A stretch of 32,000 nt of DNA from contig NZ_CP013011.1 of assembly GCF_001412615.1 (NCBI RefSeq), positions 750,001-782,000 of the forward strand, read 5' to 3'. Below the pieces are notes generated by a model. It was not told the origin of the DNA. It did no database searches and saw nothing but the letters and a program-made list of their open reading frames with translations. Shown piece after piece: positions 11,588-32,000 of the stretch. A program made the translations under genes and the position numbers. The DNA comes from Pyrodictium delaneyi (GTDB lineage: Archaea; Thermoproteota; Thermoprotei_A; Sulfolobales; Pyrodictiaceae). Position 1 is the first letter of the stretch; each line of letters starts with the position of its first letter.

Positions 11588-11599
11588 CGTGGCAGCCCC

Positions 11600-12454: not shown

Positions 12455-14030
12455 CGTCGGCAGCCTCCGCCTGGGCGGGCTTGAACACGTAAGGGTCAGT
12501 CTCGCTGACGGCCTCCTGGTATACGGAGTCGGGGTCACGCATATACATACGTATAATCTCGTGCAGCTCTAGCATATCCATCTTCTTTATAGCTGCCCAG
12601 CGTAGCACTGTGGCCCTCATCTCGAGGTCACGCCACACATCCCGAGGAGTCGTGACTAGAAGCTCTGCTATAGATTCCACGAACTTGCTGCTGCGAGATA
12701 CGAGCATCCATGTATCGCCTCGGCTATCCCACTGGAACAACCTACCTAATGTGACTTCATCATGCTCAACATCGTATAGCCTCGTCTCGTCAACTCTCGT
12801 AATCTTACGGTACACCCTGCCACCCTTCTCGATGCGGAGGATATTCACGTAGAGCTTCGCGGCCGCTATGAGGCTCTTAGGTACATTCATCGGCGGCGAA
12901 GCGAGTCTACGTATGAGTACACCTGCGGACTCAGCATGGACCGTGGTTAGGCCGCCGTGGCCCGTGGCTAGTGCCTGGAAGAAGGCGAAAGCCTCCCGGC
13001 TGCGTATCTCACCGACAATTATAACGTCGGGTCTCATACGGAGCGCGCTCTCTACCTGCGCCTGGAGTGTGACGTTTTGTACACCTGGCATATCGGAGAG
13101 ACGAGTATGCATGGCAGTCCAGTTATCGTGGAATGGTATATAGATCTCTGGTGTATCCTCAATAGTCACTATCTTGTACTCAGGCGGAAGCAGCATAGCA
13201 AGTGCGTTCAGGAGCGTGGTCTTGCCAGAGCCCGTGGGTCCATAGATAACAACACCCTGCTTATACTGTATAGCTGCCCAGAGAAGAGCCGCAACACCCT
13301 CGTCAAGTGTCCCACGGTTAATCAACTCGACGATTGTGAAGGGCTCAGCCCTGAACTTACGCACAGTAAAGCTGTGGCCTCGCCGCGACACTATATCAAG
13401 TACAATATGGACACGGTAGCCTTCAGGACGCAGCACACCCTCCACGATAGGCCTAGCGAGGCTAGGCTCACGGCCAGCCCGTAGCGCGAGCTTCATAACA
13501 ACTCGCTCTAGCTCGACCGGATCGCTAAAGGTAAGCCCGCTAGTCAGCCACTCGAACTCAGTATGATAAACGAACACTGGAGTGTAGAGCCCGTTGCACG
13601 ATATGTCTTCGATATAGGGATCCCTTATCATAGGGTCAAGACGGCCATAGCCAACAAGGTCTCGCGCTATATAGTAAGCTACGCCTAGAGCCTCCTGCTC
13701 GGGGTCACGACCTAGCCTCCTTAGCCTCCCCTTCCACCGCTTAATAACACTGTGAGCAAGCTTGTATGCCTCGCGTAATCCTTCGCCGAGATCCTCAAGC
13801 TCGGAGAATCTACGGAGAAGGCGTAAGTCGTTCATTATGCGTGAGAGAATTATGCTATAGGCCTTCTTACCTATATCCGTAAGCTGGGGCTCTTCGACAT
13901 GGTAGAAACGTCGGCCGTCAACGTCCTCAACTATGCGAACAACTATTGATGGTTCATCAAGAACACTATATTCGCTAAGAGTTTCGACAGTTCTCCCATC
14001 GGCTTGTTTGTTCTCGGCCAACCTCTCCAC
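12411..14030 (-). CDS. Type II/IV secretion-family ATPase (FlaI/ArlI/TadA-like pilus assembly ATPase)
   Basis: Walker A VIYGPTGSGKTTLLNAL, Walker B/Asp box RPDVIIVGEIR, His box ATGHGGLTTVHAES, and an N-terminal YHVEEPQLT motif typical of archaeal FlaI-like ATPases. GTG start. Confidence 0.9.
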   Translation of the reverse strand: MERLAENKQADGRTVETLSEYSVLDEPSIVVRIVEDVDGRRFYHVEEPQLTDIGKKAYSIILSRIMNDLRLLRRFSELEDLGEGLREAYKLAHSVIKRWKGRLRRLGRDPEQEALGVAYYIARDLVGYGRLDPMIRDPYIEDISCNGLYTPVFVYHTEFEWLTSGLTFSDPVELERVVMKLALRAGREPSLARPIVEGVLRPEGYRVHIVLDIVSRRGHSFTVRKFRAEPFTIVELINRGTLDEGVAALLWAAIQYKQGVVIYGPTGSGKTTLLNALAMLLPPEYKIVTIEDTPEIYIPFHDNWTAMHTRLSDMPGVQNVTLQAQVESALRMRPDVIIVGEIRSREAFAFFQALATGHGGLTTVHAESAGVLIRRLASPPMNVPKSLIAAAKLYVNILRIEKGGRVYRKITRVDETRLYDVEHDEVTLGRLFQWDSRGDTWMLVSRSSKFVESIAELLVTTPRDVWRDLEMRATVLRWAAIKKMDMLELHEIIRMYMRDPDSVYQEAVSETDPYVFKPAQAEAADGGSSGGAREAGRKV

Positions 14031-15508: not shown

Positions 15509-17263
15509 ATGGTGTCAATGTTCATTGTCATAGCAATACTAGTCTTACTCGAATACATTCCTATGGGAAATGAAGGATACATGTCAAGTACTGTAAAGAG
15601 TTCTCCAGAGCAATCTATGTATACGAATACGGATAACTCAACGAAGATTAATTCTGAAGGTAGTAGCAACAATACCGTGACGAGCTGGTCGTCGATTTCC
15701 AGTAACGAGATTGCTAGAACAATGGATGCCACAGAAAACGAAGATATAGAGACCAAGATGACTGGCGTTGTTACTGTCACTACTACTACCACTGTGTTAG
15801 AAGAAAACAAGTTAATGCAGGATAACTTCCAATGGGAGCCTCCAGTTGTCAAATGGAGTTGGAAATGGATAGAACTAGGATGGAGGGGTCTCGTTGATGT
15901 CGAGACGACTAAGTTGCTTTCGAAGGGCTGTAGGTTTGATCCCGGCGTGTTTAACGAGTCTGCTGTAAGGTGCAGCTTGCTCCAGGCGCCTGCATTTACA
16001 AGATTGGCTCGAGCTTTAGCAGAGAATTCTTCTAGTATACTTGAGACAGCTGCGCGAGTTGCTGTATGGACGGCACTACATACCAAGTATATACCAGACG
16101 GCGAAGGCGTCGAGTACGTGTATACACCAGCAGAGACTCTTACACGAGGTGGGGGTGACTGTGAGGACCGTGCTCTCCTTGAGGCTGCGCTCCTCATAGC
16201 AGCGGGGATAGATAATGTAGTGCTGGTATCCTTTGAGTTTAACGATACTGACATAGGACACGTAGAGGCCGGAGTAATAGTTAATGGTACCCTTTATCTT
16301 CTGCCGCCAGTTAATGTTTCACTGCCTCTTGAACTCGAAGACTATGCAGGCTACATGTCGTTGCAGGGCTATAGGTTAGCCAGTGTAAAAGTCTATAACG
16401 TCAAAGTCTCTAGAAATGATGGAGCACTAGTAATAAGAGTAGGTGCTGAAGAACTCAGACCTCCTATGCCTCCAACAGAGCCTTGGAGACCCCCAAGAGC
16501 TTATCTTGATGTACTCGAAACTGAAGTTTTGCAGCTAATAGAGGGCCTTTACGGGAAGCCTCCTTGTCCCGGGTTTGTGCAGAGAGTGGTAGACTGGATG
16601 GCCGGCTATCTGCCGGAGCAGGAGCCGCCAATGATTCCGGTTGGCTACTACATGTATGCAGTGCCAATTACATTGTATAAGTCAAAACCTCTCTCCTATG
16701 CCATTGTGGAGGCACGTATTTACCTCGCATCGATGTTGGCCCAGGGGTTAGACCATTGGCTACGGGAGGAGAATCACTGGTGTGTAGTTGTTCACGCCGA
16801 AGCAGAGAATGTTGAAATGCAGTTATTCCGTTATACGCCTGGTGGCGCTCTGAAGGCTTATACCGGCCTTGCGCCGGCTACGGTGCTCCACGTGTTTAGC
16901 GGGCCCTGGCTACCCTGGTTTACGGCGAACGTAACCCTTGAAGATGGTCGACTAGTAATATACTCGAAGAACAATATCACTTCAATACTTGTCTACGGTG
17001 CGGGTATTGGTGACGATCTTGTAGAGCTAGTTGGCGTAGCTAAGCCCGGGGCCTTCTACCCCGGCTTGGAGACTGTAGAGGCTCTCAACTGGACCACGGA
17101 ATATAATGGATCCCTGATAGTGATTGAATATAGTAAATTGCTTGGTGCTGTCGAAGAGAAGGCTTCTAGATTGGGTGTTGAGCCTCCATTTCTCCTAGTA
17201 GTTTGGTCGGGCGACCGGGAGTTATACGAGATGCTTCTTGTGCCCCGAGATAATGGGGGCTAA
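15509..17263 (+). CDS. Membrane-anchored exoprotein with a transglutaminase-like (Cys-protease fold) domain
   Basis: N-terminal TM (FIVIAILVLLEYI), an AT-rich S/T/N low-complexity linker (VVTVTTTTTV), a TGase-core motif TLTRGGGDCEDRALLEAALLIAAGI (Cys218) followed by DIGHVEAGV, and at least 10 N-X-S/T sequons. Confidence 0.7.
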   Translation: MVSMFIVIAILVLLEYIPMGNEGYMSSTVKSSPEQSMYTNTDNSTKINSEGSSNNTVTSWSSISSNEIARTMDATENEDIETKMTGVVTVTTTTTVLEENKLMQDNFQWEPPVVKWSWKWIELGWRGLVDVETTKLLSKGCRFDPGVFNESAVRCSLLQAPAFTRLARALAENSSSILETAARVAVWTALHTKYIPDGEGVEYVYTPAETLTRGGGDCEDRALLEAALLIAAGIDNVVLVSFEFNDTDIGHVEAGVIVNGTLYLLPPVNVSLPLELEDYAGYMSLQGYRLASVKVYNVKVSRNDGALVIRVGAEELRPPMPPTEPWRPPRAYLDVLETEVLQLIEGLYGKPPCPGFVQRVVDWMAGYLPEQEPPMIPVGYYMYAVPITLYKSKPLSYAIVEARIYLASMLAQGLDHWLREENHWCVVVHAEAENVEMQLFRYTPGGALKAYTGLAPATVLHVFSGPWLPWFTANVTLEDGRLVIYSKNNITSILVYGAGIGDDLVELVGVAKPGAFYPGLETVEALNWTTEYNGSLIVIEYSKLLGAVEEKASRLGVEPPFLLVVWSGDRELYEMLLVPRDNGG

Positions 17264-18384: not shown

Positions 18385-19569
18385 ATGATCAGGAGTTCTA
18401 TGAGGCTCGATATGAAGGGCTTTAGCCGTACTAAGCTAGCAGGAGCTATTGTAGTAGCGATTACGGCACTAGCAGCGTTAATAGTATTTGTATCAATAAT
18501 GGTTGATGTTGATGCGTCGAAAGTATATACAGAATTCCTCGAAGGCGGTTACACGATTACGAGTAGCAAGCTCTTCCAAGAAAAGGTTCTAGATACTGGC
18601 GGAGCCGTAGCTGTAATGTTCCGTTCAGACACGTGTCCGACATGTGAACGTATGTACCCGTACTGGAGGATGCTCGAGGAGAAGGCCTTGTCTCTAGGAT
18701 TTAAAGCCTATGATGTGAAACTCACACGGGACACTAGCACTATATTCAACAAGTACATGGTTCAAGATCTTCCTACATTTATAGTATTCTACGATGGCAA
18801 GCCCATAGCCAGGTACGTGGGTCCATTCACACCTGAGGACGGAAACGTGACCAGGGCGATGATAGACTGGGTGCTAGGTGCTCTCGAGGGCCGCAGTCTC
18901 GGGGCCGAGAAGGCTGAGTCGGCCACAGACCAGCAGACGTGGGCGGCGGGAGCGGCGTTAGCAGCCTCTGTAGCAGCTGCAGCGGCTGCCGGTGTTGTGT
19001 CGGCTTTCTCTCCTTGTGTCCTACCGCTGCTCATAACCAATAGTGTTGCTCTAGCTCGGCGTCGCAAGAATCCAGGTATAGCCGGCTGCTTAGTCTGCAG
19101 CCTCTCAGCCTTTGCCGGCATCATGGCTGTAGGTGTAGTGTTCCTATTAGCCTCCGGCCTCCTTGCCGGAGTACAAACAGTGCTCACGGGAATTGTAGCC
19201 GTGGCAGTGATGGCGGCAGGTATTTCATCACTGTTCGGCCTTCCTGCCGAGATACCAGTTACTCGCAGTATCCGCTCTGGCAGCCTAGCAGCATTTTGCG
19301 GACTTTACGGGTTCTTGGCTCTTCAGTGTAACCTTCCTCTAGTCGTCGGCGCGTTACTGCTAGTAGCGGGTAGTGGTGGCTTCACCCAGGGCTTGCTTGT
19401 GCTCCTTGCATTCTCGCTGGGTCTCTCCCTACCGCTTTCTGTAGCTGTCTACTTCGGCCCCCGTCTAGCTGTGCTAACGAGCCGAACGGGGGTACTCGAA
19501 AGACTAGGAGGCGCCGTGATGGTTCTCGCTGGAGCCGTGCTCCTAGCCTACAGCCTAGGCCTCATATAG
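18385..19569 (+). CDS. ccdA: Thioredoxin-domain/CcdA(DsbD-core) fusion: cytochrome c maturation thiol-reduction protein
   Basis: N-terminal TM, then an extracytoplasmic Trx fold with FRSDTCPTCERMYPYW (CxxC at nt 18634-18645). A 6-TM CcdA core follows, with both conserved Cys motifs (SAFSPCVLPLL and ALQCNLPLVVG). Confidence 0.85.
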   Translation: MIRSSMRLDMKGFSRTKLAGAIVVAITALAALIVFVSIMVDVDASKVYTEFLEGGYTITSSKLFQEKVLDTGGAVAVMFRSDTCPTCERMYPYWRMLEEKALSLGFKAYDVKLTRDTSTIFNKYMVQDLPTFIVFYDGKPIARYVGPFTPEDGNVTRAMIDWVLGALEGRSLGAEKAESATDQQTWAAGAALAASVAAAAAAGVVSAFSPCVLPLLITNSVALARRRKNPGIAGCLVCSLSAFAGIMAVGVVFLLASGLLAGVQTVLTGIVAVAVMAAGISSLFGLPAEIPVTRSIRSGSLAAFCGLYGFLALQCNLPLVVGALLLVAGSGGFTQGLLVLLAFSLGLSLPLSVAVYFGPRLAVLTSRTGVLERLGGAVMVLAGAVLLAYSLGLI

Positions 19570-19600
19570 CACAATTACGTATGAGAGGTGGTGCATTGTA

Positions 19601-22588
19601 ATGGCTATACATTATACGGGTATAGTCCCTGCGGCAGCTGCACTCGTCTACGTAGCGGCACTAGCTTACATGCTTCTCCGCCGCGATATTGAGATATCTG
19701 CTAAACTTGTAAAGAGGGCTGCTATACTCACTATAGTAGGCTGGCTAATATACTGGATACCATTTGCGATACTAGATTATAGTCTCCGCGAAGTATTCTG
19801 GAATACTAGTCCAGGGCTCCCTCTATGGATGAGGCTTGCCTCGGCCTGGGCGGGTGGAGGAGGAAGCCTATACCTATTCGCAACAATATCGGCCATAGCA
19901 ACACTCTATGTAATCCGTAGCCTAGCAGAAGCTAAGAAGCAGGATATTCTGGTAATGGGTACTGCTGCTGTAACGCTGGCAGCCATAGTTAGCGCATTCG
20001 CTAACGGCGCCTTCAGCGTGATGGAGGAACGCCCGGCTAGCGGTGCTGGGCTTAACCCGCTGCTTAAGAGTCCGTGGCTCTACCCGCACCCCCTCAGTAC
20101 CTTCGGCGGCTACGCGCTACTCGCGGTAGGCATGCTAGCACTGCTCGCGGGGCTACGCCGCCGCGGCTTCCTAGTCTACGAGCTTGGCTGGGCTCTCCTA
20201 ACCCTCGGCATCATGATTGGCGGCTACTGGAGCTACGAGACCTTCGGCTGGGGAGGCTACTGGGCATGGGACCCCGTAGAGACAAGCGAACTAATGGTAT
20301 GGCTTGCAGCCACGCTGCTACCTCACGCTATGGTGGCCGTGCCGAGCCTAGTCGCGTTCACCGAGTACCTAACGCTTTCTAGCGTATTCCTCGGCATGTA
20401 CGTGACGCGTAGCGGGCTCAGCCCTCTCCACAGCTTCGCCGCAGCCAACATAGGTGTGCTAGTACTCCTCGCCGTAGCCCTTGTTACACTCTTCCTCGCA
20501 TTCCGCCGGCTAGGCGAGTTCCGCCTCCCAAGCCTAGAGAATGTGCGAAGGAGCCCCTTCCAGGCAGGCATGCTGATAGCCACCATAGCCCTCTTCGCAG
20601 CGACCGTATTTGTCTACGCGACACTGCTTCTCCCCTCAGTACTCACTGCCGCCGGGTACGAGGCTAGTGTTCCTCAGATGCAGAGTGGTGTACGCTACTT
20701 CCACCCCGTACTCTACCCGCTACTAGTAGCGATGCTAGCAGCAATCCCGCTAGCATTCACAGGAGACAAACTAGGATGGAAAGGATACACAGCACTACTC
20801 CTAACAACAACAATAGTGTCGATACTAGCTGGGCTTGCGGCGTTTCAAGGCTCTCTTGTGCTTGCGCCACTCAGCAGCAGAGAGACAAATGCATTGATGG
20901 CCTTTGGGCTTCCCTGGGCTGGGCTTGCAGCTGCTGCAACGATACTCTACATAGCTCTGCGGCTACGTAACCGCGGCGGTAGACTCGCATGGGAGCGCAT
21001 GACGGGGATCAGTCTGCTACACCTGGGTCTAGCTGTTGTCGTCATCGGTGTCTTGCTCAGCGGTACATACTCGTTCAACGAGGCCTATTTCATCGATGCT
21101 AGTCTGAAGCCCGGCGAGCCTCTCGTACTCCCGAATGGTGTGAAAATAGAGCTTGTTGATTATCGGTTCGAGCTAAGCAACTCCATGGTAGACATTTATA
21201 CAGGCTATGCAGGGAGAGCGACTAGCTATCTTCTCGCCTGGAATACTTTGGCGATGTTGGCCTCAGACTACGGCCAGAAGGTTAAGCAAGCGCTTGAGGC
21301 TGAGAAGCTGCTTGAGGCAAACGAAACACTACGTACCCTTGTTGAGCTGGCTGTAAAGGCTCATATCTCCGCAACACGCGGCAACATCACTATAACAGGC
21401 GCCGCTAATGTGACAGGTATAGACCTATTCACGGGAGCCAAGACACCTATAGCAGAAAACATAAACATAACAATAGAACTCGTGAATCCAAGAGTTATGG
21501 CGGCCCTAGAGCCTCTACGGGACAATCTAGGCAGGGTAAAAGCCGCCAAACTCCGCATATACATTAGTGCTGATGAAGCCATTGTGGCGGGGCTACTGGG
21601 CGGCAACATTACAGCCCGCACGGTACTCGATATAGGGTTCGCGGATCCGGTAAAACTAGTGCTTGGGAATACATCGTTTGAGATAAGTCAATTGTACCTC
21701 TTAGCGACAGGCCATACCGGTCACCCAGCAGTAGAACATCGAGGCAATACCTTCACCTATAAGCCCGTAGTGGTTATCCCGAGCGGCCGTGTAGAGGTAG
21801 GAGGATACCATATCGCTAATCCGCTAGACGTGCCAGCGAGCCTCGCAGCTTACATAGAGAGTCGCCGGGATCCCTTCCTACAGAGACTTCTCAACAGCGG
21901 CCTAGCTGAGATACTGAGCAGCGATGCTGTAGTGAAAGCTCTGAACCCTCCAGGCTGTGAACCAGTAGCAGAGACACCTCACGGAGGTTGCTTCGGCTAC
22001 GTGGATGTACCTCGCACGGTTCCCGAGACTGCATGGCTAATTCTAGACCTACGTATTGAACGTGGTGATAAGGTACGTGAGGAGACTGTTGGACTCCGGT
22101 TCGAGTCGTACGGAGAAGTACAGGGTATACACGGCCTAGTAACTAAGGTTGTACATCCCCGGGTAGGACTCACAGACGTCTACATAGCGATACATGCGCC
22201 AGTGGTTACTCCAGAGTGGGGGGTCGCCGGGTACCATGAACTATTGGTCTACTATCTACACGCGGTGTACCAGTCGATGAACCTGACGCCTGCCCAGCGT
22301 ATAGCCCTAGCAGCACTCATGGCTTCAGGCTACATGATGGATACAGCTCTCTCGATAAACGATCCAGCTCAGCGCGGCCGCTTCCTCGAGCAAGCAGCGC
22401 TCGAACTCTACTTGCTGGCAGAGAGCTTCAATCCTCAGAACACCACCATAGTTCGGCAGGGACTCCCTATCCAGGTCAAACTGGTCCCGGGTGTAGCGCT
22501 AGTATGGTATGGTACAGTGATCATGGCGGCTTCAGCAGTCTATACAGCTATCATTGCAGCATATACTGCGAGGAAGGGACGCGCATAA
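19601..22588 (+). CDS. ccmF: CcmF-type cytochrome c haem lyase (System I) with a greatly expanded extracytoplasmic domain
   Basis: Collinear with E. coli CcmF (from memory): WMRLASAWAGGGGSLYLF; GLNPLLKSPWLYPHPLSTFGGY (P-His1); WWD motif WGGYWAWDPVETSELMVWL (nt 20249-20284); LLPHAM (TM-His1); YVTRSGLSPLHSFA (P-His2); LLHLGLAVVVIGV (TM-His2). It is 995 aa against roughly 650 for typical CcmF. Confidence 0.9.
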   Translation: MAIHYTGIVPAAAALVYVAALAYMLLRRDIEISAKLVKRAAILTIVGWLIYWIPFAILDYSLREVFWNTSPGLPLWMRLASAWAGGGGSLYLFATISAIATLYVIRSLAEAKKQDILVMGTAAVTLAAIVSAFANGAFSVMEERPASGAGLNPLLKSPWLYPHPLSTFGGYALLAVGMLALLAGLRRRGFLVYELGWALLTLGIMIGGYWSYETFGWGGYWAWDPVETSELMVWLAATLLPHAMVAVPSLVAFTEYLTLSSVFLGMYVTRSGLSPLHSFAAANIGVLVLLAVALVTLFLAFRRLGEFRLPSLENVRRSPFQAGMLIATIALFAATVFVYATLLLPSVLTAAGYEASVPQMQSGVRYFHPVLYPLLVAMLAAIPLAFTGDKLGWKGYTALLLTTTIVSILAGLAAFQGSLVLAPLSSRETNALMAFGLPWAGLAAAATILYIALRLRNRGGRLAWERMTGISLLHLGLAVVVIGVLLSGTYSFNEAYFIDASLKPGEPLVLPNGVKIELVDYRFELSNSMVDIYTGYAGRATSYLLAWNTLAMLASDYGQKVKQALEAEKLLEANETLRTLVELAVKAHISATRGNITITGAANVTGIDLFTGAKTPIAENINITIELVNPRVMAALEPLRDNLGRVKAAKLRIYISADEAIVAGLLGGNITARTVLDIGFADPVKLVLGNTSFEISQLYLLATGHTGHPAVEHRGNTFTYKPVVVIPSGRVEVGGYHIANPLDVPASLAAYIESRRDPFLQRLLNSGLAEILSSDAVVKALNPPGCEPVAETPHGGCFGYVDVPRTVPETAWLILDLRIERGDKVREETVGLRFESYGEVQGIHGLVTKVVHPRVGLTDVYIAIHAPVVTPEWGVAGYHELLVYYLHAVYQSMNLTPAQRIALAALMASGYMMDTALSINDPAQRGRFLEQAALELYLLAESFNPQNTTIVRQGLPIQVKLVPGVALVWYGTVIMAASAVYTAIIAAYTARKGRA

Positions 22589-22729: not shown

Positions 22730-23713
22730 TTGGAGCGCACGAGCCTCGTAATTCTGGTGCTACTTGTAGCTCTGGCAGCCTCGAATGCTGCCTGGGTGAC
22801 GCTCTACAGCCATAGCAAGTACAATACGGAGAACCTACTTGAGGAGAATCAGAGGCTGAGTCGGCAGCTAGAACTACTTGCCAACAAGGTTAAGGAATTA
22901 GATGAGAATAATACGAGACTTTTGCTCCAGCTCCGTGACATCAGTACTCGCTATCAGCGGCTCCTCGGTCTACTACAGCAAGCTAATAGCACTATAGCTA
23001 ATGCAGCTGTAGTGGCAAGGCTAATCGAAAACCTCAACACAAGCCTAACAACACTCTACACCTACACGAATACACATGCCTACTACACTCCGCGCGTGCG
23101 CAGCCTCTTCACACCAGGCTCTGTAGCAGACCTAGTAATGGCGATAACAGGGCACCCAGTTTACACCCAAGGCTCAGCACTCCAGGATATGGAGAAGCTC
23201 TACGACTGGGTCCAGGAGAACATACAAGACGCGCCGGACCATAACTTCGTTGCCGTGAAGGACCCGGAGTACGTGGAGATAGGTGGCTCCAAGTACATCT
23301 ACAGCTTCCAGATAGACATAGTAGACAACTATATACAGTCACCGTCAGAGACCCTACAACGCATGGCCGGTGACTGCGAGGACCAGTCGATACTGCTAGC
23401 GTCCATGTATAAGATCTACTTAGGAGACGTTGGTGATGCATGGGTTCTCTGCATGTTCTCGGATAAGTACGACCACTGCGTAGCAATAGCGTGGATCGGG
23501 CCTGAGAAGACCTTCATACTTGCAGATCCCACGCTAGACTACTACGGCAAAGCTGAGAGCCTACGTAGTGTTCTCGATGACTGGCTAGGATACGTGGGCA
23601 TGTCCATGGAACAGGTACGCAGGATGGTGGCGTTCAACAACAAGGAGTACATCGAGGATGTACCTTACAATGTCATTCACACAATTGAGGAGAAGACCCT
23701 TGGTCAAGGCTAG
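22730..23713 (+). CDS. Membrane-anchored coiled-coil exoprotein with a transglutaminase-like domain
   Basis: N-terminal TM (LVILVLLVALAASNAAW), a heptad-like region (LLEENQRLSRQLELLANKVKELDENNTRLLLQL), and a TGase triad candidate: MAGDCEDQSILLASMY (Cys216), YDHCVAIAW (His), FILADPT (Asp). TTG start. Confidence 0.7.
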   Translation: MERTSLVILVLLVALAASNAAWVTLYSHSKYNTENLLEENQRLSRQLELLANKVKELDENNTRLLLQLRDISTRYQRLLGLLQQANSTIANAAVVARLIENLNTSLTTLYTYTNTHAYYTPRVRSLFTPGSVADLVMAITGHPVYTQGSALQDMEKLYDWVQENIQDAPDHNFVAVKDPEYVEIGGSKYIYSFQIDIVDNYIQSPSETLQRMAGDCEDQSILLASMYKIYLGDVGDAWVLCMFSDKYDHCVAIAWIGPEKTFILADPTLDYYGKAESLRSVLDDWLGYVGMSMEQVRRMVAFNNKEYIEDVPYNVIHTIEEKTLGQG

Positions 23714-23732
23714 ATGTCCAAGGTGATAATCC

Positions 23733-24464
23733 ATGCATCGCGTAGCTGCAGTCCTAGCCCTACTACTTATAGCAAAACTAGCTGTAATCGCGCCAGCACA
23801 GGCCGCGGAAAGACTGGAAGTCAAGATATATCATGCAGAGCTAGGCCCCTTCATACAGACACTCGCAGACGGCCGCCGGATAATGGTGAAGATAGACGTC
23901 TACTTCCCCGACACGCTTGTCTACCGTGGCCCCGAGGAGGGTCTTGGCACAGTAAACTTCACAATAACTACTAACTGGACTGGTCCCTGGGACGGCATAG
24001 TAACGGTACAAGTAGTCGACCCAGGCTACCACATTGATCCAACTACGTTCAAGCCCGTCGAGTCGGTGAATGCGTGGGCTGAGGGCGGCGACACGGTTGG
24101 TACTGGGGCGCTCCACATAGCTAGTGGCGCCTATACGGGCAGCGTCAAGAACATGACCGTGGTGTTGAGGCCCCACGAGCGCTACTTTACTGCTCCTAGT
24201 GGCGAGTACACGGCACAATACTTCTTCAAAGCCCGGCTAGCATTCTTCAAGCCTGATGGCAGCAAAGTGCTGGGAGGCGATGTGAACATCTACACGGATA
24301 GCGAAACAGCACCAATGATCAAACTGATAGTAGTCAAGGAACCCGAAGCTGGGGGCGACAATAGGCTGGCAGGCTCTATAGCACTAAATGCTGGTATAGC
24401 AGCGGCAGTAGTAGCTGTAGGCTACGCTGTAGTAGAGTATCTTGTGAGGCGTAAACGAGGCTAG
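23733..24464 (+). CDS. Secreted, C-terminally membrane-anchored beta-rich protein of unknown function
   Basis: Signal peptide MHRVAAVLALLLIAKLAVIAPAQA|AE, three N-X-T sequons, and a C-terminal TM plus basic tail (AAVVAVGYAVVEYLVRRKRG). AAGGTGA lies 6 nt before the ATG. Confidence 0.6.
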   Translation: MHRVAAVLALLLIAKLAVIAPAQAAERLEVKIYHAELGPFIQTLADGRRIMVKIDVYFPDTLVYRGPEEGLGTVNFTITTNWTGPWDGIVTVQVVDPGYHIDPTTFKPVESVNAWAEGGDTVGTGALHIASGAYTGSVKNMTVVLRPHERYFTAPSGEYTAQYFFKARLAFFKPDGSKVLGGDVNIYTDSETAPMIKLIVVKEPEAGGDNRLAGSIALNAGIAAAVVAVGYAVVEYLVRRKRG

Positions 24465-24838: not shown

Positions 24839-26827
24839 ATGCAAAAACCCTTAGCCAAGATTGTAGTCTTTTGGGTAATAGCACTCTTCCTCCTTCCCAG
24901 CATAGCACCCCTAGCAAGAGCAGCAACCTACAGCTGGGGCGAAGAGATCAGCCTCTCAGGTGTACAGCTAACAACAGAGTCTAAGGACTGTGTAGAGTGC
25001 CACATGCGTGCTACACCCTTCATAGTATACGACTGGTATAAGAGCAAGCACCGCATGGTCGGCGTAGGCTGCTACGAGTGTCACAGTGCTAAGCCCGGAA
25101 CAAGGCCCGACGTCTACGAGCACTACGGCTACTACATAACAACCCTAGTGACGCCCAAGCAGTGTGGCCGCTGCCACCCCGCAATAGCCGAGGAGTTCCA
25201 GAAGAGCGTCCACGCGTTCGCCGGAGTACACGCCTACGTGCTGAAGGAGGAGCCAGCCTACTGGATGATCCTAGCGAAGCAGTTTGGCTGGGACGAGCAC
25301 TTCAAGGTGCCAGCCGAGTATATCGAGACGGAGTGGGTACCTAAGATAGTGCGTGACTTCGTCGGCGATCAGAATTACGGTAAAGTCGTGCTAGAAGAGG
25401 ATCCAACCAACGCTATAATCCCGTACAACCCGCTTGGCCTAAGTATTGACAACTACGTTGCCCAGAAGGCCCTCTACATCTGGGGTATACGCGGCTGTCT
25501 AGGATGCCACGGCGTACGTATGGACGTCAAGGACGCGTTTGCCTTCCCGAGTCTAGACGAGCTAATGCAGTACATGAAGGAGGGCAAGGCTCCCGAGAAG
25601 GTAGTGTATGACCCGGCGTTCATGCACAACCACGGTATCGGCCGCGTGAACCCTGACGGCAGTCTAGGCAGCTGTGAGGCATGCCACCCGTATCACGGCT
25701 TCAGCGTAAAGATAGCCAGGAAGGGCGCCTACCAGGCATGTGGCCGCTGCCACACGGGACCAGACCATCCGAACGACGAGCAGTGGAGTAAGAGCGTACA
25801 CGGCGCCATATTCTGGGGCGAGGCCGAGGACTGGGACTGGGACAAGCCTGTCAACAACTGGATGCCAGGCCGCGACTACAGGGCACCCACATGTGTAACC
25901 TGCCACATGGCTGCAGTGTTCAACGAGCGTGGCGAGGTCAAGTATGCTAGCAGCCACGACGTAGCCATAATCAGCAAGTTCAAGCTAGGCAAGTGGGTAT
26001 ACACTCTACCGCGTGTAGCTGGCCTGCCAGATTTCGCAATACCGACAGCCACAGCGACCCAGGCACCTGTATTCAAGAGCCCGACAACAGGCGACACGAT
26101 AACACTAGTCTACCCAGAGCCCGACTGGAAGGCACGCAGACAGAGAGCAATTGACATGTGTGCCCAGTGCCACACCAAGGAGTACGCGGCGGCATGGTTG
26201 AAGACCTACGACTGGATGATCATACTAGTAGACTACATGAGAGACGAGTACGTACTAACCGTAGCCAACATGCTGAAGGCAAAGGGTCTATTCACACCAA
26301 TGGACGAGTGGATGGTGAGAAACCTAGGTGCTATGGCCAATAGGCCCACTAAGATGTCTGCAGCACACTTCGGCCCCGACTTCACCTGGTGGGAGGGCAT
26401 AATGCACTTCGCTGAGAAGATAGAGGAGTGGCTAATCGATGTATACGAGAGGCCTGCTGTAGCCAAGAAGGCGCCAGAGATACGCGAGAAGATCGAAGAG
26501 ATACTGCCATGGTTCAAGGAGCAGTGGGAGGGCGAGGGCAGCACTGGCACAGTACACAGCCTTGCAGAGGTGAAGACAGCTATCGCTAAGGCCGTCGAGG
26601 CGCCGAGCATAGAGGCCTATGCTCAGAAGGTAGAGACCCTAGAACCGCCAGCAAAGCCGCTAGTAGCCAAGGCGCCGGTGAAGACCCTAGGTGAGGTCAG
26701 CGAGTTCAGCCTAACACTGCCAGGCAGCGATGCTAGCCGCGAGGTGCCGGTAGCAGTATTCGCGGTGTTCCCGGCAGCACCTCTACTACTAGTCTTCGTA
26801 TCCAGAAAGCGCGCTGTAGCAGCATAA
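24839..26827 (+). CDS. Octahaem c-type cytochrome of the hydroxylamine oxidoreductase (HAO) family, membrane-anchored
   Basis: Eight CXXCH motifs (CVECH, CYECH, CGRCH, CLGCH, CEACH, CGRCH, CVTCH, CAQCH). Several blocks are collinear with Nitrosomonas HAO (see findings). It has a signal peptide (...LARA|AT) and a C-terminal stalk plus TM anchor ([21 protein letters not shown]). Confidence 0.9.
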   Translation: [662 protein letters not shown]

Positions 26828-26999: not shown

Positions 27000-28898
27000 T
27001 TGTACTGGGAGCCAGCACTTTACCTAGCTCTCTCGGCTGAGGCGATCGCAGCAGCCTACGCGGTAGGTAGGGGGATGCGAGAGGGGTATGATAGACCCTT
27101 CGAGACTGGACCGGTATACCGTGTAGGCCTCGTGCTTACGGCGGTTTCTTTCCTGCTCGCGCTACGCTTCGACGTAATGGTGACTGTGCCTAGTCTCATG
27201 CTGCTCGCGTCTAGTCTAGCAGTCCTCGCGGGAGCCCGGCTACGGTTGAGAATGAGTCCAGTTGAAGCACTAGCCTCCACCATAGCCTTTTACTCGTTCG
27301 CTCTAGCATCGCTCGCTGCCCGTGCAGCAGTGCTCGACCTGGATCCACGTGGTGAAGCACTACTTCCGTGGGTTCTGTTAACGCTGGCGGCTGGCTGGGG
27401 CCTACTAGCGGCATTGGTAACCATGAGCGAACCCCAGAGGAGCATTGCTGCAGTCATGGGTCTACTTGGCGGTGTAGGACTGGCGGCTCTAGGTTTCTGG
27501 CTGCTCTTCAATACTAGGATCGGATCGCCGCTTTACGGGGACGCACTCAGTATGGCTCTGCTCGCGCTGCTAGTAACTGGTGCTGCCATTGCTTCAAGGT
27601 TATCCCCATACCTGGTGCTGGCATCCGGCGTGATTGCGGCTCTCCTCGCGGGCCGCTCGCTTCTCGCGGGTGGTGTCCCCTACATAGCTTGCACAGGTAG
27701 CTGCGGCTCCCTGGCCACGGCATGGCTCATATTCGTCATAGTCGTGGCCGCGCCTCGGCTATACCTCGAAGCCGAGACGGTACGTGGAAGGATGCGTGCT
27801 GCTGGGCTGGAGACAGTGTTCTCGCCCTCCACACTTGCCTCGGCTTCGGTGCTGCTGGCGGGACTAGCTGCATGGGCTTCACTTCAAGGCTCGTTGAGCA
27901 TAGGTACCGTAGCTGCTGTGAGCGTATTAGTGGCCTCAGCTGCTGCTGGCGGGGGCTCTGCTTCGGCGCTTGTGCTATTCCTAGGCGCTATAGCTGCTAT
28001 CTACAGTCCCGCACTAGGCATAGTGGTTTCTGCTATAGCGGCTGTTGCGGTTCCAGCACTGCTACGGAACCAGCGACTAGGTCCATTAAATCCCCCTAAG
28101 GGCCTCGTGTACGGGCTATTGCTGGTGGTCATTGGGCTTGCTGCAGGAGGCTACATAGCAGCTACGCTTGGTCACAGTATGCAAGCTGAAGCCTCGATAA
28201 CAGTAGCTGGGCTTGGGCCCGCTAAGCTAGTGCAGCCGCCAAGCGACGAGGTGACGCACGCCTTCTTCCAGCTCTATCTCGGCGTCAAGAACGAGACATT
28301 GCTATACGCGCTACTCGCGCCGAAGCTGGGCAAAGATGAGGCACTAAAAATGGTTGAGTTTGCTCATGCCGTCCGCTTGGCAGCTGAAAAGCGTGGGATA
28401 AACGACCCCTATAACATAACCGAGCTTGATATACCTCGTAAAATGCCTAGCCTCGAGACCAGGATCGAAACCAATGGCGTATCAGCGACAGTGAATGTAC
28501 CGGCTTCAAGTATACTCTACGGCCATCCATACACTAGCGGTGTCGAGAGGGCCGGGCTTGACCTCGTATCCGTCACGCTGCCTAGCAATGTCACTAAGGC
28601 ATTGACTGATATCTACCTCCGCTTAGTCTCTGATCCAAAGCTAGCTGGTGATGATGCTCTTCGCTACACGATATTTGCCGCAATGGCTGTAAGCTGGAGA
28701 GAAACGGGCACCCTGAATATGACGGCGCAGCTGATCTTCGATTCGTTGCTCGGTAACAATACTGTGGCTAACCACGTGTCTTCGGAGGTTAGCGTCGCAA
28801 GAGCCTCGTTAGGCGTTATTGCCCTAGTTGTCTACATGGGGTGCCTGGTTGCTGCTCCTGTCGCACCACTTCTGGTCAATGTTCGTAGAAGCGGCTAG
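27000..28898 (+). CDS. Large polytopic membrane protein with a C-terminal extracytoplasmic domain and terminal TM; unknown function
   Basis: 632 aa. About 12 Ala/Leu/Gly-rich TM helices (aa 1-400), a ~200-aa soluble domain with five N-X-S/T sequons, and a final TM (LGVIALVVYMGCLVAAPVAPLLV). TTG start with AGGGGAG 7 nt upstream. No CXXCH motif. Confidence 0.6.
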   Translation: MYWEPALYLALSAEAIAAAYAVGRGMREGYDRPFETGPVYRVGLVLTAVSFLLALRFDVMVTVPSLMLLASSLAVLAGARLRLRMSPVEALASTIAFYSFALASLAARAAVLDLDPRGEALLPWVLLTLAAGWGLLAALVTMSEPQRSIAAVMGLLGGVGLAALGFWLLFNTRIGSPLYGDALSMALLALLVTGAAIASRLSPYLVLASGVIAALLAGRSLLAGGVPYIACTGSCGSLATAWLIFVIVVAAPRLYLEAETVRGRMRAAGLETVFSPSTLASASVLLAGLAAWASLQGSLSIGTVAAVSVLVASAAAGGGSASALVLFLGAIAAIYSPALGIVVSAIAAVAVPALLRNQRLGPLNPPKGLVYGLLLVVIGLAAGGYIAATLGHSMQAEASITVAGLGPAKLVQPPSDEVTHAFFQLYLGVKNETLLYALLAPKLGKDEALKMVEFAHAVRLAAEKRGINDPYNITELDIPRKMPSLETRIETNGVSATVNVPASSILYGHPYTSGVERAGLDLVSVTLPSNVTKALTDIYLRLVSDPKLAGDDALRYTIFAAMAVSWRETGTLNMTAQLIFDSLLGNNTVANHVSSEVSVARASLGVIALVVYMGCLVAAPVAPLLVNVRRSG

Positions 28899-28928: not shown

Positions 28929-28935
28929 TTTTTTT
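28929..28935 (+). promoter_or_regulatory. T7/TTTTTTTAAG element: TATA-like box for the 13-haem gene (or terminator of the upstream gene)
   Basis: CGATTTTTTTAAGAC is centred about 29 nt upstream of the ATG at 28962. No SD-like sequence intervenes, which fits a leaderless transcript. The same T7 run lies 31 nt after the upstream stop. Confidence 0.35.
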
Positions 28936-28961
28936 AAGACAAAGGCTAAAAGCTATTGTAA

Positions 28962-30272
28962 ATGCTCTTTCCTATAAAACTGGTGGAGGGAGGCGAGGCT
29001 ACAGTGGACACCACGAAAGCCGCCAGGACGCTGATAATAGTAGCGGTATTTCTAGTAGCACTCTTTGCTTACTGGCAGCTGACAGTGCCAGGATACTTTA
29101 AGGGCGTAGAGTTATGTGGCAAAGGCTGCCACGTGACCAGCGTCCTCGACTACGAGAAGATAAACCACCCCTTCTGGTGTATAGGCTGCCACGGGTTCGG
29201 CGTAAAGAGCGAGATCCTGCCCGGGATCCCGCTCTACCGGGACCACGAGCTAGAGATGCTAGTGGAGGAGCACGGCGAGTGCCTAATGTGCCATCGTGTA
29301 CCCGGAGAGTTCCACTGGAAGCACATTAACGCAACTGAGGAAGACCTAGCCAAGCTAGAGCTAATGCGCCCGGTACAGTGTACAGATTGTCACACCACAG
29401 CCTACCATGGAGGTCACAAGGACAGGCCAAAGGATGACGTATGTCTAAAATGTCACGATGCCGAGAAGCTTCATCCAGATATGAATAAAAAATTGGTCGC
29501 AGCTTGCACCAAGTGCCACTCTGAGGAGCCTGCTGTAGACTGGGCGATTTTCAAGAAGGGTCAGATAGGCTACGGGTTTGTAGCTGACGCAGGCCTAGCA
29601 CTTGCAGCAGACCTCGGCGTAGTGAAAACAACGGCCCCGGGCTGTCTCCTTTGCCACAATATACCGGAGACACAGGGTCACCTAAAACACATGGGCAAAG
29701 AATACAATGGTAAACGGGTAGAGTGTCTAGATTGTCACAAGAATGATATACCCCATGGCGAGAAGATAGGAACGAACGTATGTCTCGACTGTCATAATCC
29801 CAAGGAGACTAAATGCCATGACAAGGGCTTTGAGGAGTTCCTACTAGACTGTTACCGGTGCCATGGCGGCTTCGCGCTGGCTAATGAGACGCTCTACCTG
29901 GCCGGCAAAGGCTGTGAAGGCTGTCACGGCGACACTCTCGAGAAGGTTGTAGGCATAGGGCTACACTCTAGCCACATACCCTACTATGCGTGCAGCAAAT
30001 GCCATGACGTTGAATCGGGAAGCCATAGCCGATTCGTAGAGTCTGCAAGCGATCCAGAGAAGTGCCTCGACTGCCACACGAAGGCCGCAGGAGTCAAGTC
30101 TGAGGCGCTTCAGGGACTGAGAACTAGTACAGCCCTATCATTCAGCGAAGACATTAGACATGTAGAGCTAGTGGAGAAGGCTAAAGGCAATTGCCTCAAG
30201 TGCCACGACGAGTGGCATGTGGCAGGCAAGCCTAGGATAATCTACGGCAAGAGTAAAGGGGAGGGAAGCTAG
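28962..30272 (+). CDS. Membrane-anchored multihaem c-type cytochrome (13 CXXCH + 1 CX3CH)
   Basis: N-terminal TM anchor (TLIIVAVFLVALFAYWQLTV). Motifs in order: CGKGCH (CX3CH), CIGCH, CLMCH, CTDCH, CLKCH, CTKCH, CLLCH, CLDCH, CLDCH, CYRCH, CEGCH, CSKCH, CLDCH, CLKCH, in 436 aa. Many extra His residues are available as distal ligands. Confidence 0.9.
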   Translation: MLFPIKLVEGGEATVDTTKAARTLIIVAVFLVALFAYWQLTVPGYFKGVELCGKGCHVTSVLDYEKINHPFWCIGCHGFGVKSEILPGIPLYRDHELEMLVEEHGECLMCHRVPGEFHWKHINATEEDLAKLELMRPVQCTDCHTTAYHGGHKDRPKDDVCLKCHDAEKLHPDMNKKLVAACTKCHSEEPAVDWAIFKKGQIGYGFVADAGLALAADLGVVKTTAPGCLLCHNIPETQGHLKHMGKEYNGKRVECLDCHKNDIPHGEKIGTNVCLDCHNPKETKCHDKGFEEFLLDCYRCHGGFALANETLYLAGKGCEGCHGDTLEKVVGIGLHSSHIPYYACSKCHDVESGSHSRFVESASDPEKCLDCHTKAAGVKSEALQGLRTSTALSFSEDIRHVELVEKAKGNCLKCHDEWHVAGKPRIIYGKSKGEGS

Positions 30273-30326: not shown

Positions 30327-31073
30327 TTGAGTGTTGTCAGGGCTGAGGCTGAAGGGGGACGGGCCCCTAGCTGGCTAGAGGAACACATGTGGCGCCGCTT
30401 ACGCGCACTATTCGACTTGGTACTTCAGCTCAGCGTTCTCAGACGTCGCCGCGACCTAGGTGAGTGGCTTGTAGCGTGGCTGACTTACCTAGGTCTTGTT
30501 GGCGCTATACTTACAGCAATAATAACAGCAGCCACCCGTGGTGTAGTGCTTGCAGCTAATACGGTCCTAAGGCCTCATGCACTTCCTATAATCAGCCCAG
30601 CGCTCGAGAAACTGTTCATAAGCTGGCCACAGCTAGCAATAGGTATGGGTTATCATGCGCATATAATCACAGCGCTATACTTTGCAGCACCAGCCTATAC
30701 AGCAGCTCTAGTAGCAGCCTTCCTGCTAAAGGACGAATGGCTGCGCAGCTTCCTATTCCCGCGAGGAATTAACGCTAGGGACGTCTCCGACCACTTGTTG
30801 CTAGTGCTAAGCTTCCTCACAGCCTGGGCTGCGGCAGTAATAGCGCCACAGATGGCGGCTGAGGGTGCACTGGTGCCCGGGCTACAAGCACTTGCACCAC
30901 ACATCGCTATAGGAACCTTCTGGATAATCTACTCGCTAGCGATACGCGGACTAGCCTACCGTGTAGTAGGCACAGCGCTGACACTGCTATACGTGGTTGT
31001 ATTCAATCGCTACCCGGAAAGAGTGTTCAGAGATATCTTTGAAGAAGATCCATGGGTAAGCCTACTACGCTAA
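30327..31073 (+). CDS. Integral membrane protein, candidate b-type cytochrome/quinol-interacting subunit (speculative)
   Basis: 248 aa with 5-6 TM helices. His residues lie in or next to the helices (RPHALP, GYHAHIITALYF, DHLLLVLSF, APHIAIGTFW). TTG start 11 nt after GGAGGTG. It starts 54 nt after the 13-haem gene with no T-tract between them. Confidence 0.45.
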   Translation: MSVVRAEAEGGRAPSWLEEHMWRRLRALFDLVLQLSVLRRRRDLGEWLVAWLTYLGLVGAILTAIITAATRGVVLAANTVLRPHALPIISPALEKLFISWPQLAIGMGYHAHIITALYFAAPAYTAALVAAFLLKDEWLRSFLFPRGINARDVSDHLLLVLSFLTAWAAAVIAPQMAAEGALVPGLQALAPHIAIGTFWIIYSLAIRGLAYRVVGTALTLLYVVVFNRYPERVFRDIFEEDPWVSLLR

Positions 31074-31100: not shown

Positions 31101-31396
31101 GACATCATATTCGGCATTATAATAGACTCTGTGCTAATTCCGCTTCTTTCTCACTCCATAACCTGTACCTTACCCCAGAGCCTGCCTACTCGCTCAGTAT
31201 AAGGACTATGGATGCCCGAGACATTATGGAGCGTTTGTTGCCGCTGTAACCCGCCGTCTTGGGCTAGTATACGGTCTTGTAGCTGTAATGACCGCCTCTA
31301 GGCTATAAACCTACAGTAGCGGCATTAGCTCCTCTTCTCCTGGGATGAAGGCTCCGGGCTGGCTAGCGTCTAGCGCCGAGGAAGGGCTGCTGGGCT

Positions 31397-32000
31397 ATGC
31401 TCTGGTTCGTGTTGACAACTGGGGCTTGCAACTTGCGCTGCCAGTACTGTGGCGGGGGGTTTCCCCCAGAATACTCGCCCCCTCGTCCAGTATATGGGGC
31501 CGAGAAGCTCGTAGAGTCCATCAGACGGCTAGACCCGGATCCGGTGATCTTCTTCTACGGCGGAGAGCCACTAGTTAACCCGAAGCTGATAATGGAGGTT
31601 ATGGATCTCCTGCCGGAGGCCCGTTACGGGATACAGACCAACGGGCTACTCTACCGCCAGCTCCCCGAGGAGTACTGGGCCCGGTTCCACCGCGTCCTGC
31701 TCAGCATAGACGGCGTCGAGGAGATCACTGACCGGTGGAGGGGCCGCGGCGTCTACCGCCGCGTACTGAAGGCCCTAAGGTTCCTCAGAGAGCTGCAGAG
31801 GCGCCGAGGAGGCCCCGGGGCTGTCATAGCCAGGATGGCGGTGACCCATGACACGGTTATCGACAGAGATGTGCTGCACCTCCTCCTGGACCTTGGTTTC
31901 GACAAGGCTCACTGGCAGCTTGACGCGGTCTGGAGCCCGCCGTGGCCCATAGGCCGCTGGGCTAGGGAGAGTTACCTCCCGGGGCTAAGGAGGCTCGCAA
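31397..32000 (+). CDS. Radical SAM domain protein, 3'-truncated by the window edge (not in the supplied ORF track)
   Basis: My own translation of the frame starting at ATG 31397 gives MLWFVLTTGACNLRCQYCGGGFPPEYSPPRPVYGAEKLVESIRRLDPDPVIFFYGGEPLVNPKLIMEVMDLLPEARYGIQTNGLL...SIDGVEEITDRWRGRGVYRRVLKAL..., open to 32000. It has a CX3CX2C cluster motif (31427-31450) and FYGGEPL and QTNG motifs. Confidence 0.8.
   Translation, partial: MLWFVLTTGACNLRCQYCGGGFPPEYSPPRPVYGAEKLVESIRRLDPDPVIFFYGGEPLVNPKLIMEVMDLLPEARYGIQTNGLLYRQLPEEYWARFHRVLLSIDGVEEITDRWRGRGVYRRVLKALRFLRELQRRRGGPGAVIARMAVTHDTVIDRDVLHLLLDLGFDKAHWQLDAVWSPPWPIGRWARESYLPGLRRLA

Follow-up and report, generated by a model that had tools for sequence, protein, structure and literature searches.

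In Geobacter sulfurreducens, the quinol-linked inner-membrane cytochrome ImcH (GSU3259) has CXXXCH as its first haem-binding motif and contains a NapC/NirT-like region (PMC4251993). In the archaeon Pyrodictium delaneyi, a putative membrane complex "Mcc" (Pyrde_0784-0787), called unique to the Pyrodictiaceae, includes a 13-haem subunit that is Pyrde_0786 in the type strain (Kashyap & Holden 2021, PMC8105010). We analysed the gene for this subunit in a stretch of 32,000 nucleotides (nt) of the P. delaneyi genome (contig NZ_CP013011.1, positions 750,001 to 782,000 of the forward strand), which as a whole is called the window and to which all positions below refer. In strain Hulk the gene is Pdsh_01720, tabulated with "12 heme motifs" (Demey et al. 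2017, PMC5556600), and signal peptides were predicted for all five cytochromes of that strain (PMC5556600). The Pyrde_0786 protein was detected by mass spectrometry in P. delaneyi, and the octahaem cytochrome of the complex, Pyrde_0784, showed a 60-fold higher abundance on ferrihydrite than on nitrate, with the two flanking membrane proteins unchanged (PMC8105010). The authors proposed that electrons pass from methylmenaquinol through Mcc to terminal reductases, methylmenaquinone being present in the family (PMC8105010). The cytochrome is thus already in the literature, yet uncharacterised.

Several described systems share features with this cytochrome. Like NrfH, NapC and CymA, it has a single predicted N-terminal membrane helix, a first haem no more than about 10 residues from the membrane, one or more membrane-proximal haems without a conserved distal His, and a putative role as donor to an enzyme of the NrfA/hydroxylamine oxidoreductase (HAO) superfamily. 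Unlike these four-haem proteins, however, it has 14 haem sites, a CX3CH motif in first position and two obligatory integral-membrane neighbours. ImcH, compared here by its published description only, resembles it in being CX3CH-first and in its association with the cytoplasmic membrane and extracellular electron transfer, but has up to three transmembrane (TM) helices, seven haems and the NapC/NirT-like region; by analogy, ImcH would be the better functional counterpart than NapC/NrfH. The 16-haem HmcA is also a long chain that arose by tandem duplication of a small multihaem unit, and GSU1996-type dodecahaem cytochromes are soluble periplasmic wires of repeated c7-like units. Both HmcA and GSU1996 differ from the P. 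delaneyi protein in being soluble and periplasmic, built of tri- or tetrahaem c7/c3 domains, with no anchor or dihaem head. In alternative complex III (ActA) and the HAO-c554-cM552 system, as proposed for the cassette described below, an anchored multihaem cytochrome and polytopic subunits link quinol to extracytoplasmic acceptors, and the latter system likewise has an HAO-family octahaem as redox partner. The cassette differs in having no NrfD-like or iron-sulfur subunit, and its membrane subunits are orphans.

As read from alignments and profile comparisons, the P. delaneyi cytochrome starts with a hydrophobic segment at its N-terminus, continues with a unique dihaem head and ends in three tetrahaem repeats arranged in tandem. 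With moderate confidence, we propose that it is the electron-wire subunit of the respiratory Mcc complex, leading from the membrane to an outward-facing octahaem cytochrome.

Haem-binding motifs and the CX3CH site

The gene and its first motif are located as follows; residue numbers are those of the 436-amino-acid (aa) product of the longest open reading frame (ORF).

28962..30272, + strand: longest ORF of the 14-haem-site cytochrome, 436 aa, stop-free translation
29004-30272, + strand: probable coding sequence, 422 aa with a GTG start, the same as the annotated type-strain protein
29115..29132, + strand: CX3CH motif CGKGCH (C52, C56, H57; aa 52-57), proposed 14th, membrane-proximal haem site

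A regular-expression count in the 436-aa product gave 13 CXXCH motifs (first Cys at aa 73, 107, 140, 161, 182, 228, 255, 274, 297, 318, 344, 368 and 411) and one CX3CH motif, i.e., 14 sites or one per 31 residues. These numbers agree exactly with the initial annotation of this DNA, which had reported 13 CXXCH motifs plus an N-proximal CX3CH motif and a density of about one site per 31 residues. The motifs take up 28 of the 29 cysteines, C285 being the only one outside them. In composition-preserving shuffles of the protein, CXXCH occurred on average 0.13 times and at most three times, so the motif set is real and far beyond chance. Exactly two N-X-S/T sequons were counted (N123 and N308), as had been claimed. 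The published counts are inconsistent, with 12 or 13 haems for this protein and, for the Pyrolobus fumarii homologues of the cytochrome and the octahaem protein, 11 and 6 haems, respectively; our direct counts in both P. delaneyi and P. fumarii (L001 10001-11272 and 6046-8046) were 13 CXXCH plus one CX3CH, and 8 CXXCH.

The CX3CH motif had been noticed as the first motif after the anchor, and its coordinates bear this out. None of the 17 family clusters (36-72% identity) departs from C52, C56 or H57, and the consensus is C-x-x-[G/A]-C-H. Since identity among the 17 sequences drops to 36%, this conservation indicates that the motif is functional, and in the remainder of the protein, with the 13 CXXCH blocks set apart, a CX3CH is unlikely to occur by chance (p = 8e-4, shuffling). 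An archaeal Ccm system attaches haem to CXXXCH in Methanosarcina MmcA, as seen from peptide mass shifts of 615.17 Da (PMC11024163). Taken with this precedent, the invariance of the motif makes it likely that the CX3CH site carries a 14th covalently bound haem. The calculated mass of the 436-aa form is 56,067 Da with 13 haems and 56,682 Da with 14, and that of the 422-aa form 54,612 Da and 55,227 Da, respectively.

The lone pair C285-H286 (29814-29819) was considered as a 15th, single-Cys haem site and rejected, as H286 aligns in register as the distal His of the second repeat unit and the Cys before it lacks conservation. Apart from P. delaneyi strain Hulk/Su06, only P0023, a protein of the P. 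abyssi genome, has this Cys.

Protein architecture

Five segments follow one another in the protein:

29025..29087, + strand: N-terminal hydrophobic segment, aa 22-42, signal-anchor TM helix as predicted by hydropathy, preceded by K19/R22
29088..29261, + strand: family-specific dihaem head, aa 43-100 (haems 1-2), with invariant PGY, CX3CH and WCxGCHGFG
29274..29519, + strand: tetrahaem unit 1, aa 105-186 (haems 3-6), distal His 118, 121, 152 and 171; M109 invariant
29637..29864, + strand: tetrahaem unit 2, aa 226-301 (haems 7-10), distal His 240, 243, 265 and 286
29907..30206, + strand: tetrahaem unit 3, aa 316-415 (haems 11-14), distal His 335, 338, 355 and 400

The hydrophobic segment has a hydropathy of 2.4 over 19 aa and is present in all four proteins scanned (those of the window, L001, L003 and L005). 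AlphaFold2 (AF2) predicted a helix across aa 17-56. A single N-terminal TM helix before the first motif, as suggested initially, is in line with a hydrophobic stretch at aa 22-42 and CX3CH at aa 52, and the cytochrome is probably membrane-anchored through it.

The dihaem head is specific to the family. It contains no invariant non-motif His, Lys or Met; the nearest candidate is the invariant M109, which lies in unit 1 only. Because invariant ligands are lacking, the two head haems may be five-coordinate, unusually ligated or completed by another subunit. The head shows no similarity to the repeat units (hhalign probability 5-22%). Searches of Pfam, NCBIfam and the PDB with limits as loose as E<=10 likewise gave no relatives of it. 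Among the matches listed in the exhaustive search, no best-matching stretch starts before profile position ~87. A word-indexed search with the N-terminal profile A3 returned zero matches, not even the family's own members, and is hence uninformative.

The three repeats were recognized by profile-profile comparison of sub-alignments, in which unit 1 matched unit 2 with an hhalign probability of 98.7% (E = 3e-16) and unit 2 matched unit 3 with 96.7% (E = 3e-10), their four CXXCH motifs and four non-motif His aligning in register. All 12 invariant non-motif His of the family are located in the repeats, four in each, so that each repeat can be a self-contained bis-His tetrahaem module with the pattern CxxCH-x6-12-H-x2-H...CxxCH-x5-6-H...CxxCH-x7-27-H...CxxCH. 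Rather than a tetrahaem enzyme with additional haems fused to it, the protein has a dihaem head followed by three tetrahaem repeats. The suggested length of a fusion-sized electron wire holds, as the chain is long enough to act as a wire.

Comparison with known cytochrome families

The initial annotation likened the protein to NapC/NrfH-type quinol dehydrogenases. Every sequence-based test of membership failed, and the resemblance is positional only, i.e., a helix followed by a haem. PF03264 (NapC/NirT) was absent from the cytochrome even at E<=10, the N-terminal 159 aa had no NrfH/NapC match at E<=10, and a search of the PDB with the N-terminal profile A3 returned no NrfH chain. TIGR03153 (NrfH) reached 18 bits (cut-off 134), with a match confined to aa 343-418. 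This match and that to PDB 2J7A (profile positions 261-368) are weak, fall in the C-terminal half and lie in different registers; we therefore dismissed them as generic CXXCH similarity. The protein also has no CXXCHXM motif, that is, no Met at +2.

Recognizable similarity was to generic multihaem c-type cytochromes, namely Cytochrome_C7 PF14522 (41.4 bits, cut-off 24.8) and Cytochrom_c3_2 PF14537 (41.5 bits, cut-off 25), and the best c7/c3_2 stretches were at aa 136-187 and 295-373. Matches to the DmsE/MtrA decahaem family (TIGR03508, 45.2 bits) and the HmcA hexadecahaem family (NF045713, 30.7 bits) remained below the cut-offs of 192.2 and 400, respectively, and that to ActA was insignificant (E = 0.014). 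Hmc chains in the PDB matched the family profile weakly (E ~1e-6). Among PDB sequence matches at E<=10 there was no cytochrome named OmcS, OmcE or OmcZ and no recognizable filament cytochrome, and the fold search was empty. These comparisons with HMM and structure databases support the initial view that the protein is not a routine member of a characterized family.

Gene neighbourhood and partner proteins

The genes around the cytochrome gene that belong to the same cassette are:

22730..24464, + strand: two exported proteins that open the six-gene cassette, one of 327 aa, weakly transglutaminase-like/DUF553, and one of 243 aa with a signal peptide and a C-terminal TM anchor
24839..26827, + strand: octahaem c-type cytochrome of the IhOCC/HAO family, with 8 CXXCH, a signal peptide and a C-terminal TM anchor
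27000..28898, + strand: 632-aa polytopic membrane protein of an orphan family, with 10 or more TM helices, an extracytoplasmic domain of ~200 aa and a TM helix at the C-terminus
30327..31073, + strand: 248-aa membrane protein of an orphan family, with 4-5 TM helices, candidate membrane/quinol partner

Synteny was compared in nine loci besides the window (L001, L003, L005, L007, L008, L009, L012, L014 and, in part, L010). The trio of the 632-aa type, the cytochrome and the 248-aa type is conserved in all nine, at 36-93% identity and with very short spacers. In every locus the upstream neighbour of the cytochrome is a polytopic membrane protein of ~580-630 aa and the downstream neighbour a membrane protein of ~240-270 aa, the latter separated by anything from a 1-nt overlap to a 54-nt gap. 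The complete six-gene cassette, in the order transglutaminase-like exported protein, C-terminally anchored ~245-aa protein, octahaem and trio, was found in four genomes (those of the window, L001, L005 and L009). The pair of 327-aa and 243-aa genes precedes the octahaem in L001, L005 and L009 and, in part, in L003. The initial annotation had linked the cytochrome with the octahaem and the 248-aa membrane protein; they are co-encoded, and the arrangement is conserved in nine loci. Upstream of the cytochrome gene there is usually an octahaem gene of the IhOCC/HAO type. In L003 (2988-8146), a metagenome-assembled genome (MAG) of Desulfurococcales type, an insertion of ~5 kb with small ORFs, a PIN-domain gene, a PaREP1 gene and an MFS transporter parts the octahaem from an intact trio of 584-aa protein, cytochrome and 243-aa protein.

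The 248-aa protein is the best conserved of the gene set, with a mean column identity of 66% vs. 40% for the cytochrome. Five of its His (84, 110, 112, 156 and 192) are invariant and are kept even in the most divergent loci. Their placement was read from the sequence together with the helices of the AF2 model: because the strongly positive N-terminal segment should be cytoplasmic, the prediction puts H84, H110, H112 and H192 on the outer membrane face and H156 on the inner one. The TM region of the 632-aa protein is poorly conserved. Neither the 632-aa nor the 248-aa protein had a match in Pfam, NCBIfam, PDB sequence or fold searches.

The octahaem protein matched PDB 4QO5, the Ignicoccus IhOCC, at E = 3e-47, HAO/HDH at E = 1e-12 to 1e-23, and PF13447 with 66 bits, and by these scores belongs to the IhOCC/HAO family. 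The description of IhOCC in PMC9250108 is that of an octahaem nitrite reductase which belongs to the HAO clade and whose catalytic haem is five-coordinate. The octahaem is the probable terminal redox enzyme of the complex.

A C-terminal hydrophobic helix followed by a short basic tail occurs in three products of the cassette, at 24839-26827 (...SRKRAVAA), 23733-24464 (...RRKRG) and 27000-28898 (...NVRRSG), which suggests that its exported components use a common C-terminal mode of membrane anchoring. Exported transglutaminase-like proteins of DUF553 recur beside the cassette, with a 584-aa copy at 15509-17263 (+), the weaker 327-aa copy at 22730-23713 (+), and another at L003 1-87.

Directly upstream of the cassette, at 18385-22588 (+), lie genes for a thioredoxin(CPTC)-CcdA fusion of 394 aa and a CcmF-like haem lyase of 995 aa. 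The lyase has the canonical motif WGGYWAWDPVE, 13 TM helices, an extra extracytoplasmic domain of ~450 aa and a C-terminal TM helix. Its gene is Pdsh_01745, listed as a second ccmF besides Pdsh_09015 of the main ccm cluster (PMC5556600). This pair might be dedicated to maturing the cytochromes of the operon, although the adjacency is not conserved in other genomes. The narrower idea that the two proteins form a dedicated lyase for the CX3CH site is unsupported by synteny and stays speculation: in those other loci whose upstream sequence is long enough, no ccmF was called beside the cassette, and the CX3CH site of MmcA is matured by the general archaeal Ccm system (PMC11024163).

Elsewhere in the window, 1219-2625 (-) holds hemA for glutamyl-tRNA reductase, the first step of haem synthesis, and 8745-14030 (-) an archaellum/pilus-type set with a KaiC-like ATPase, two T2SS-F-like membrane proteins and a T2SS-E-like ATPase. 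An ORF of at least 211 codons, 31367-32000 (+), runs past the 3' end of the window.

Start codon and transcription signals

Two candidate signals precede the cytochrome gene:

28929..28939, + strand: T-rich TATA-like box tttttttaaga, read directly from the sequence; candidate promoter
28985..28993, + strand: Shine-Dalgarno-like GGAGGGAGG, 10 nt upstream of GTG 29004

The N-termini of the orthologues align to aa 12-15 of the 436-aa product, and a start equivalent to GTG 29004 is shared by the annotated type-strain protein and the orthologues. In most orthologous loci (L005, L007, L008, L009 and L014) a GGAGG-like motif stands 5-25 nt before the start. The TATA-like box lies in the 63-105-nt spacer downstream of the 632-aa gene, for which it possibly serves as a terminator as well. 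It is located ~26 nt before ATG 28962, a distance that alone would fit a leaderless mRNA. However, homology and the Shine-Dalgarno motif disfavour a leaderless start at this ATG relative to GTG 29004. The gene had been assigned its own leaderless promoter. A promoter of its own is plausible, with AT-rich, TATA-like spacers of ~95-130 nt upstream of the cytochrome in all orthologous loci, but the leaderless part is unlikely: because the orthologue starts match a GTG preceded by GGAGGGAGG, the transcript is probably leadered.

As initially observed, no T-tract precedes the next membrane-protein gene; none was found in the 54-nt spacer. The 248-aa gene has its own GGAGGTG motif before its TTG start at 30327, and together these features are consistent with its co-transcription with the cytochrome. 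Sizeable AT-rich spacers precede the octahaem, 632-aa and cytochrome genes. The published proteomics fit separate promoters, since the octahaem is regulated and the flanking membrane proteins are constant.

Family distribution and size variants

Full-length relatives of the cytochrome formed 17 clusters (90% identity) in a collection of 5.8 billion proteins, and all named members belong to Pyrodictium, Pyrolobus, Pyrodictiaceae or Thermoproteota. A genome scan added cytochrome loci from Hyperthermus-like and Desulfurococcales MAGs. In an exhaustive hidden Markov model (HMM) search of 1.8 billion representatives, four full-length proteins at the 50% level were among the matches listed. On these sequence searches, the family is restricted to the Pyrodictiaceae and close relatives. 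Giant multihaem cytochromes (1,000-4,000 aa) matched best mainly at profile positions ~210-370, i.e., unit 2 and much of unit 3. Some relatives of ~410 aa have the C-terminal half in common, but their first motif is a plain CXXCH.

Within the family, variants of 443-448 aa (P0016, P0017; L008 930-2276) have 16 haem sites, with two extra CXXCH between haems 9 and 10. Variants of 547 aa (P0015, L007 3389-5032; L014 5932-7575) have 20 sites, comprising 18 CXXCH, the CX3CH and one SxxCH; in haem 3 of P0015 the first Cys is replaced by Ser, leaving a single-thioether site. As read from these alignments, the larger variants grew through insertion of repeat material.

The MAG 'Pyrodictium delaneyi SZUA-1523' (L010, L011) contains two cytochrome copies on separate contigs, 93% and 72% identical to the window protein. 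Either they are true paralogues or the bin mixes two Pyrodictium species.

Proposed mechanism and alternatives

In the mechanism that we propose for the electron-wire subunit, the N-terminal helix would keep the dihaem head on the outer side of the cytoplasmic membrane. There, the head and the 248-aa protein would together form the site at which (methyl)menaquinol passes its electrons to the head. The four outer-face His of this protein may bind haem b or complete the coordination of haems 1 and 2. From the head, electrons would pass out into the pseudo-periplasm through the chain of 12 bis-His haems, as far as the C-terminally anchored octahaem and possibly further extracytoplasmic reductases, for respiration of Fe(III) and/or N-oxides. 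The parts of this mechanism that we infer are the topology, the place of quinol entry, the direction in which electrons flow and their acceptor. A further step would be to regard the trio of 632-aa protein, 14-haem cytochrome and 248-aa protein as a new type of archaeal quinol:cytochrome-c oxidoreductase, with a menaquinol site across two subunits and the head haems completed or faced by haem b bound through the His of the 248-aa protein. We regard this as speculative and unlikely as it stands. In a survey, neither cytochrome b nor Rieske genes were found in Pyrolobus and Hyperthermus (PMC4429474); in this lineage, such a trio would functionally correspond to CymA, ImcH, alternative complex III or bc1.

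Several observations weigh against the wire mechanism. The 632-aa and 248-aa proteins resemble no known quinol-binding subunit, and the AF2 model of the 248-aa protein (pLDDT 64) is too weak to define an interface and gave only noise in Foldseek (E>0.6). The hydrophobic N-terminus of the cytochrome could be a cleaved signal peptide, which the conserved small residue A35 would fit. The AF2 model of the cytochrome, built on a 17-sequence alignment, has a pLDDT of 65, with the head and the junction of units 2 and 3 below 50, so haem geometry is unseen; Foldseek found nothing in the PDB with it, and, apo-models of multihaem proteins being unreliable, no structural inference was drawn from it. Finally, the family is also present in organisms of different respiratory habits, e.g., Pyrolobus fumarii and P. 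abyssi.

The cytochrome might instead be an autonomous quinol dehydrogenase of the NapC/NrfH/CymA type, extended by fusion, with neighbours that are unneeded for quinol oxidation. Its first haem motif does follow a single N-terminal hydrophobic helix within 10 residues, and haem 1 of NrfH and CymA is high-spin, as one of haems 1-2, which have no conserved distal His, could be here; the quinol-linked, NapC-like ImcH also starts with CXXXCH. However, PF03264 and TIGR03153 do not cover the N-terminal region, no NrfH appeared in the PDB profile search, CXXCHXM is missing, and the weak NrfH matches (aa ~270-420) come in two registers of a protein built as a head plus three repeats rather than as a tetrahaem core. 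In addition, the strict linkage and high conservation of the His-rich 248-aa protein argue that it has an essential role, and we consider autonomy of this kind improbable. Much the same standing is given to a cleaved Sec signal at the N-terminus, which would leave a soluble or peripheral shuttle in the pseudo-periplasm similar to Hmc or GSU1996. The conserved small residue (A/G) at aa 35 before a conserved aromatic pair is a possible signal-peptidase site, signal peptides were predicted for all five cytochromes (PMC5556600), and the best, though weak, PDB sequence relatives are soluble 16-haem Hmc proteins. Yet the hydrophobic stretch of ~20 residues is long for an h-region and has no A-x-A site, the aromatic residue at aa 37 and the invariant PGY at 43-45 are strongly conserved, as in a membrane-interface element, and the gene stands between two integral membrane proteins in every genome examined.

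The wire may also serve N-oxide metabolism as the quinol-linked donor to an IhOCC-type nitrite/hydroxylamine reductase, like NrfH for NrfA or c554/cM552 for HAO. The octahaem is a homologue of IhOCC, of the HAO clade with a five-coordinate catalytic haem, and the family is present in Pyrolobus fumarii, a nitrate-reducing chemolithoautotroph. The octahaem was named as the closest candidate for the missing nitrite reductase (PMC5556600). Its 60-fold greater abundance on ferrihydrite than on nitrate (PMC8105010) and the non-use of nitrite by strain Hulk (PMC5556600) stand against such a role, which appears possible but rather doubtful. It concerns the terminal acceptor only and is compatible with the wire mechanism. 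By far the least probable is polymerization into an extracellular cytochrome filament, like the archaeal tetrahaem filaments or those of OmcS, OmcE and OmcZ. All that speaks for it is that the haem density is high and that the organism needs direct contact with minerals (PMC8105010). Against it are the lack of any recognizable filament cytochrome among the PDB sequence matches at E<=10, the N-terminal membrane segment and the fixed membrane-protein neighbours. Moreover, the 12 repeat haems have intramolecular bis-His ligands, so ligation between subunits is not needed within the wire.

Implications for respiration in the Pyrodictiaceae

In term searches, the main texts of PMC8105010 and PMC5556600 neither mentioned the CX3CH motif nor described a head plus three repeats, haems 1 and 2 without distal ligands, invariant His in the 248-aa protein, a cassette of six genes, or the octahaem as an IhOCC homologue. 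New to the description of this complex are the conserved CX3CH site, the head with three tetrahaem repeats, the ligand-less state of the head and the obligate His-rich membrane partner.

Pyrodictium and other hyperthermophilic Crenarchaeota reduce Fe(III) minerals while in direct contact with them, but how electrons get from their quinone pool to the outside of the cell is not known to have been established. The Mcc cassette is the leading published candidate for such an electron path. What had been a vague "13-haem subunit" now gives rise to specific hypotheses, namely a 14th haem, a ligand-less dihaem head and a linked His-rich orphan membrane protein. If these are true, the complex would contain a quinol-oxidizing module unrelated to NapC/NrfH, NrfD or cytochrome b, and would represent an independent archaeal answer to the problem that CymA and ImcH solve in bacteria. 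Otherwise, the family is still a clean case of the growth of a multihaem wire by tandem duplication of a tetrahaem unit, with members of 14, 16 or 20 haems.

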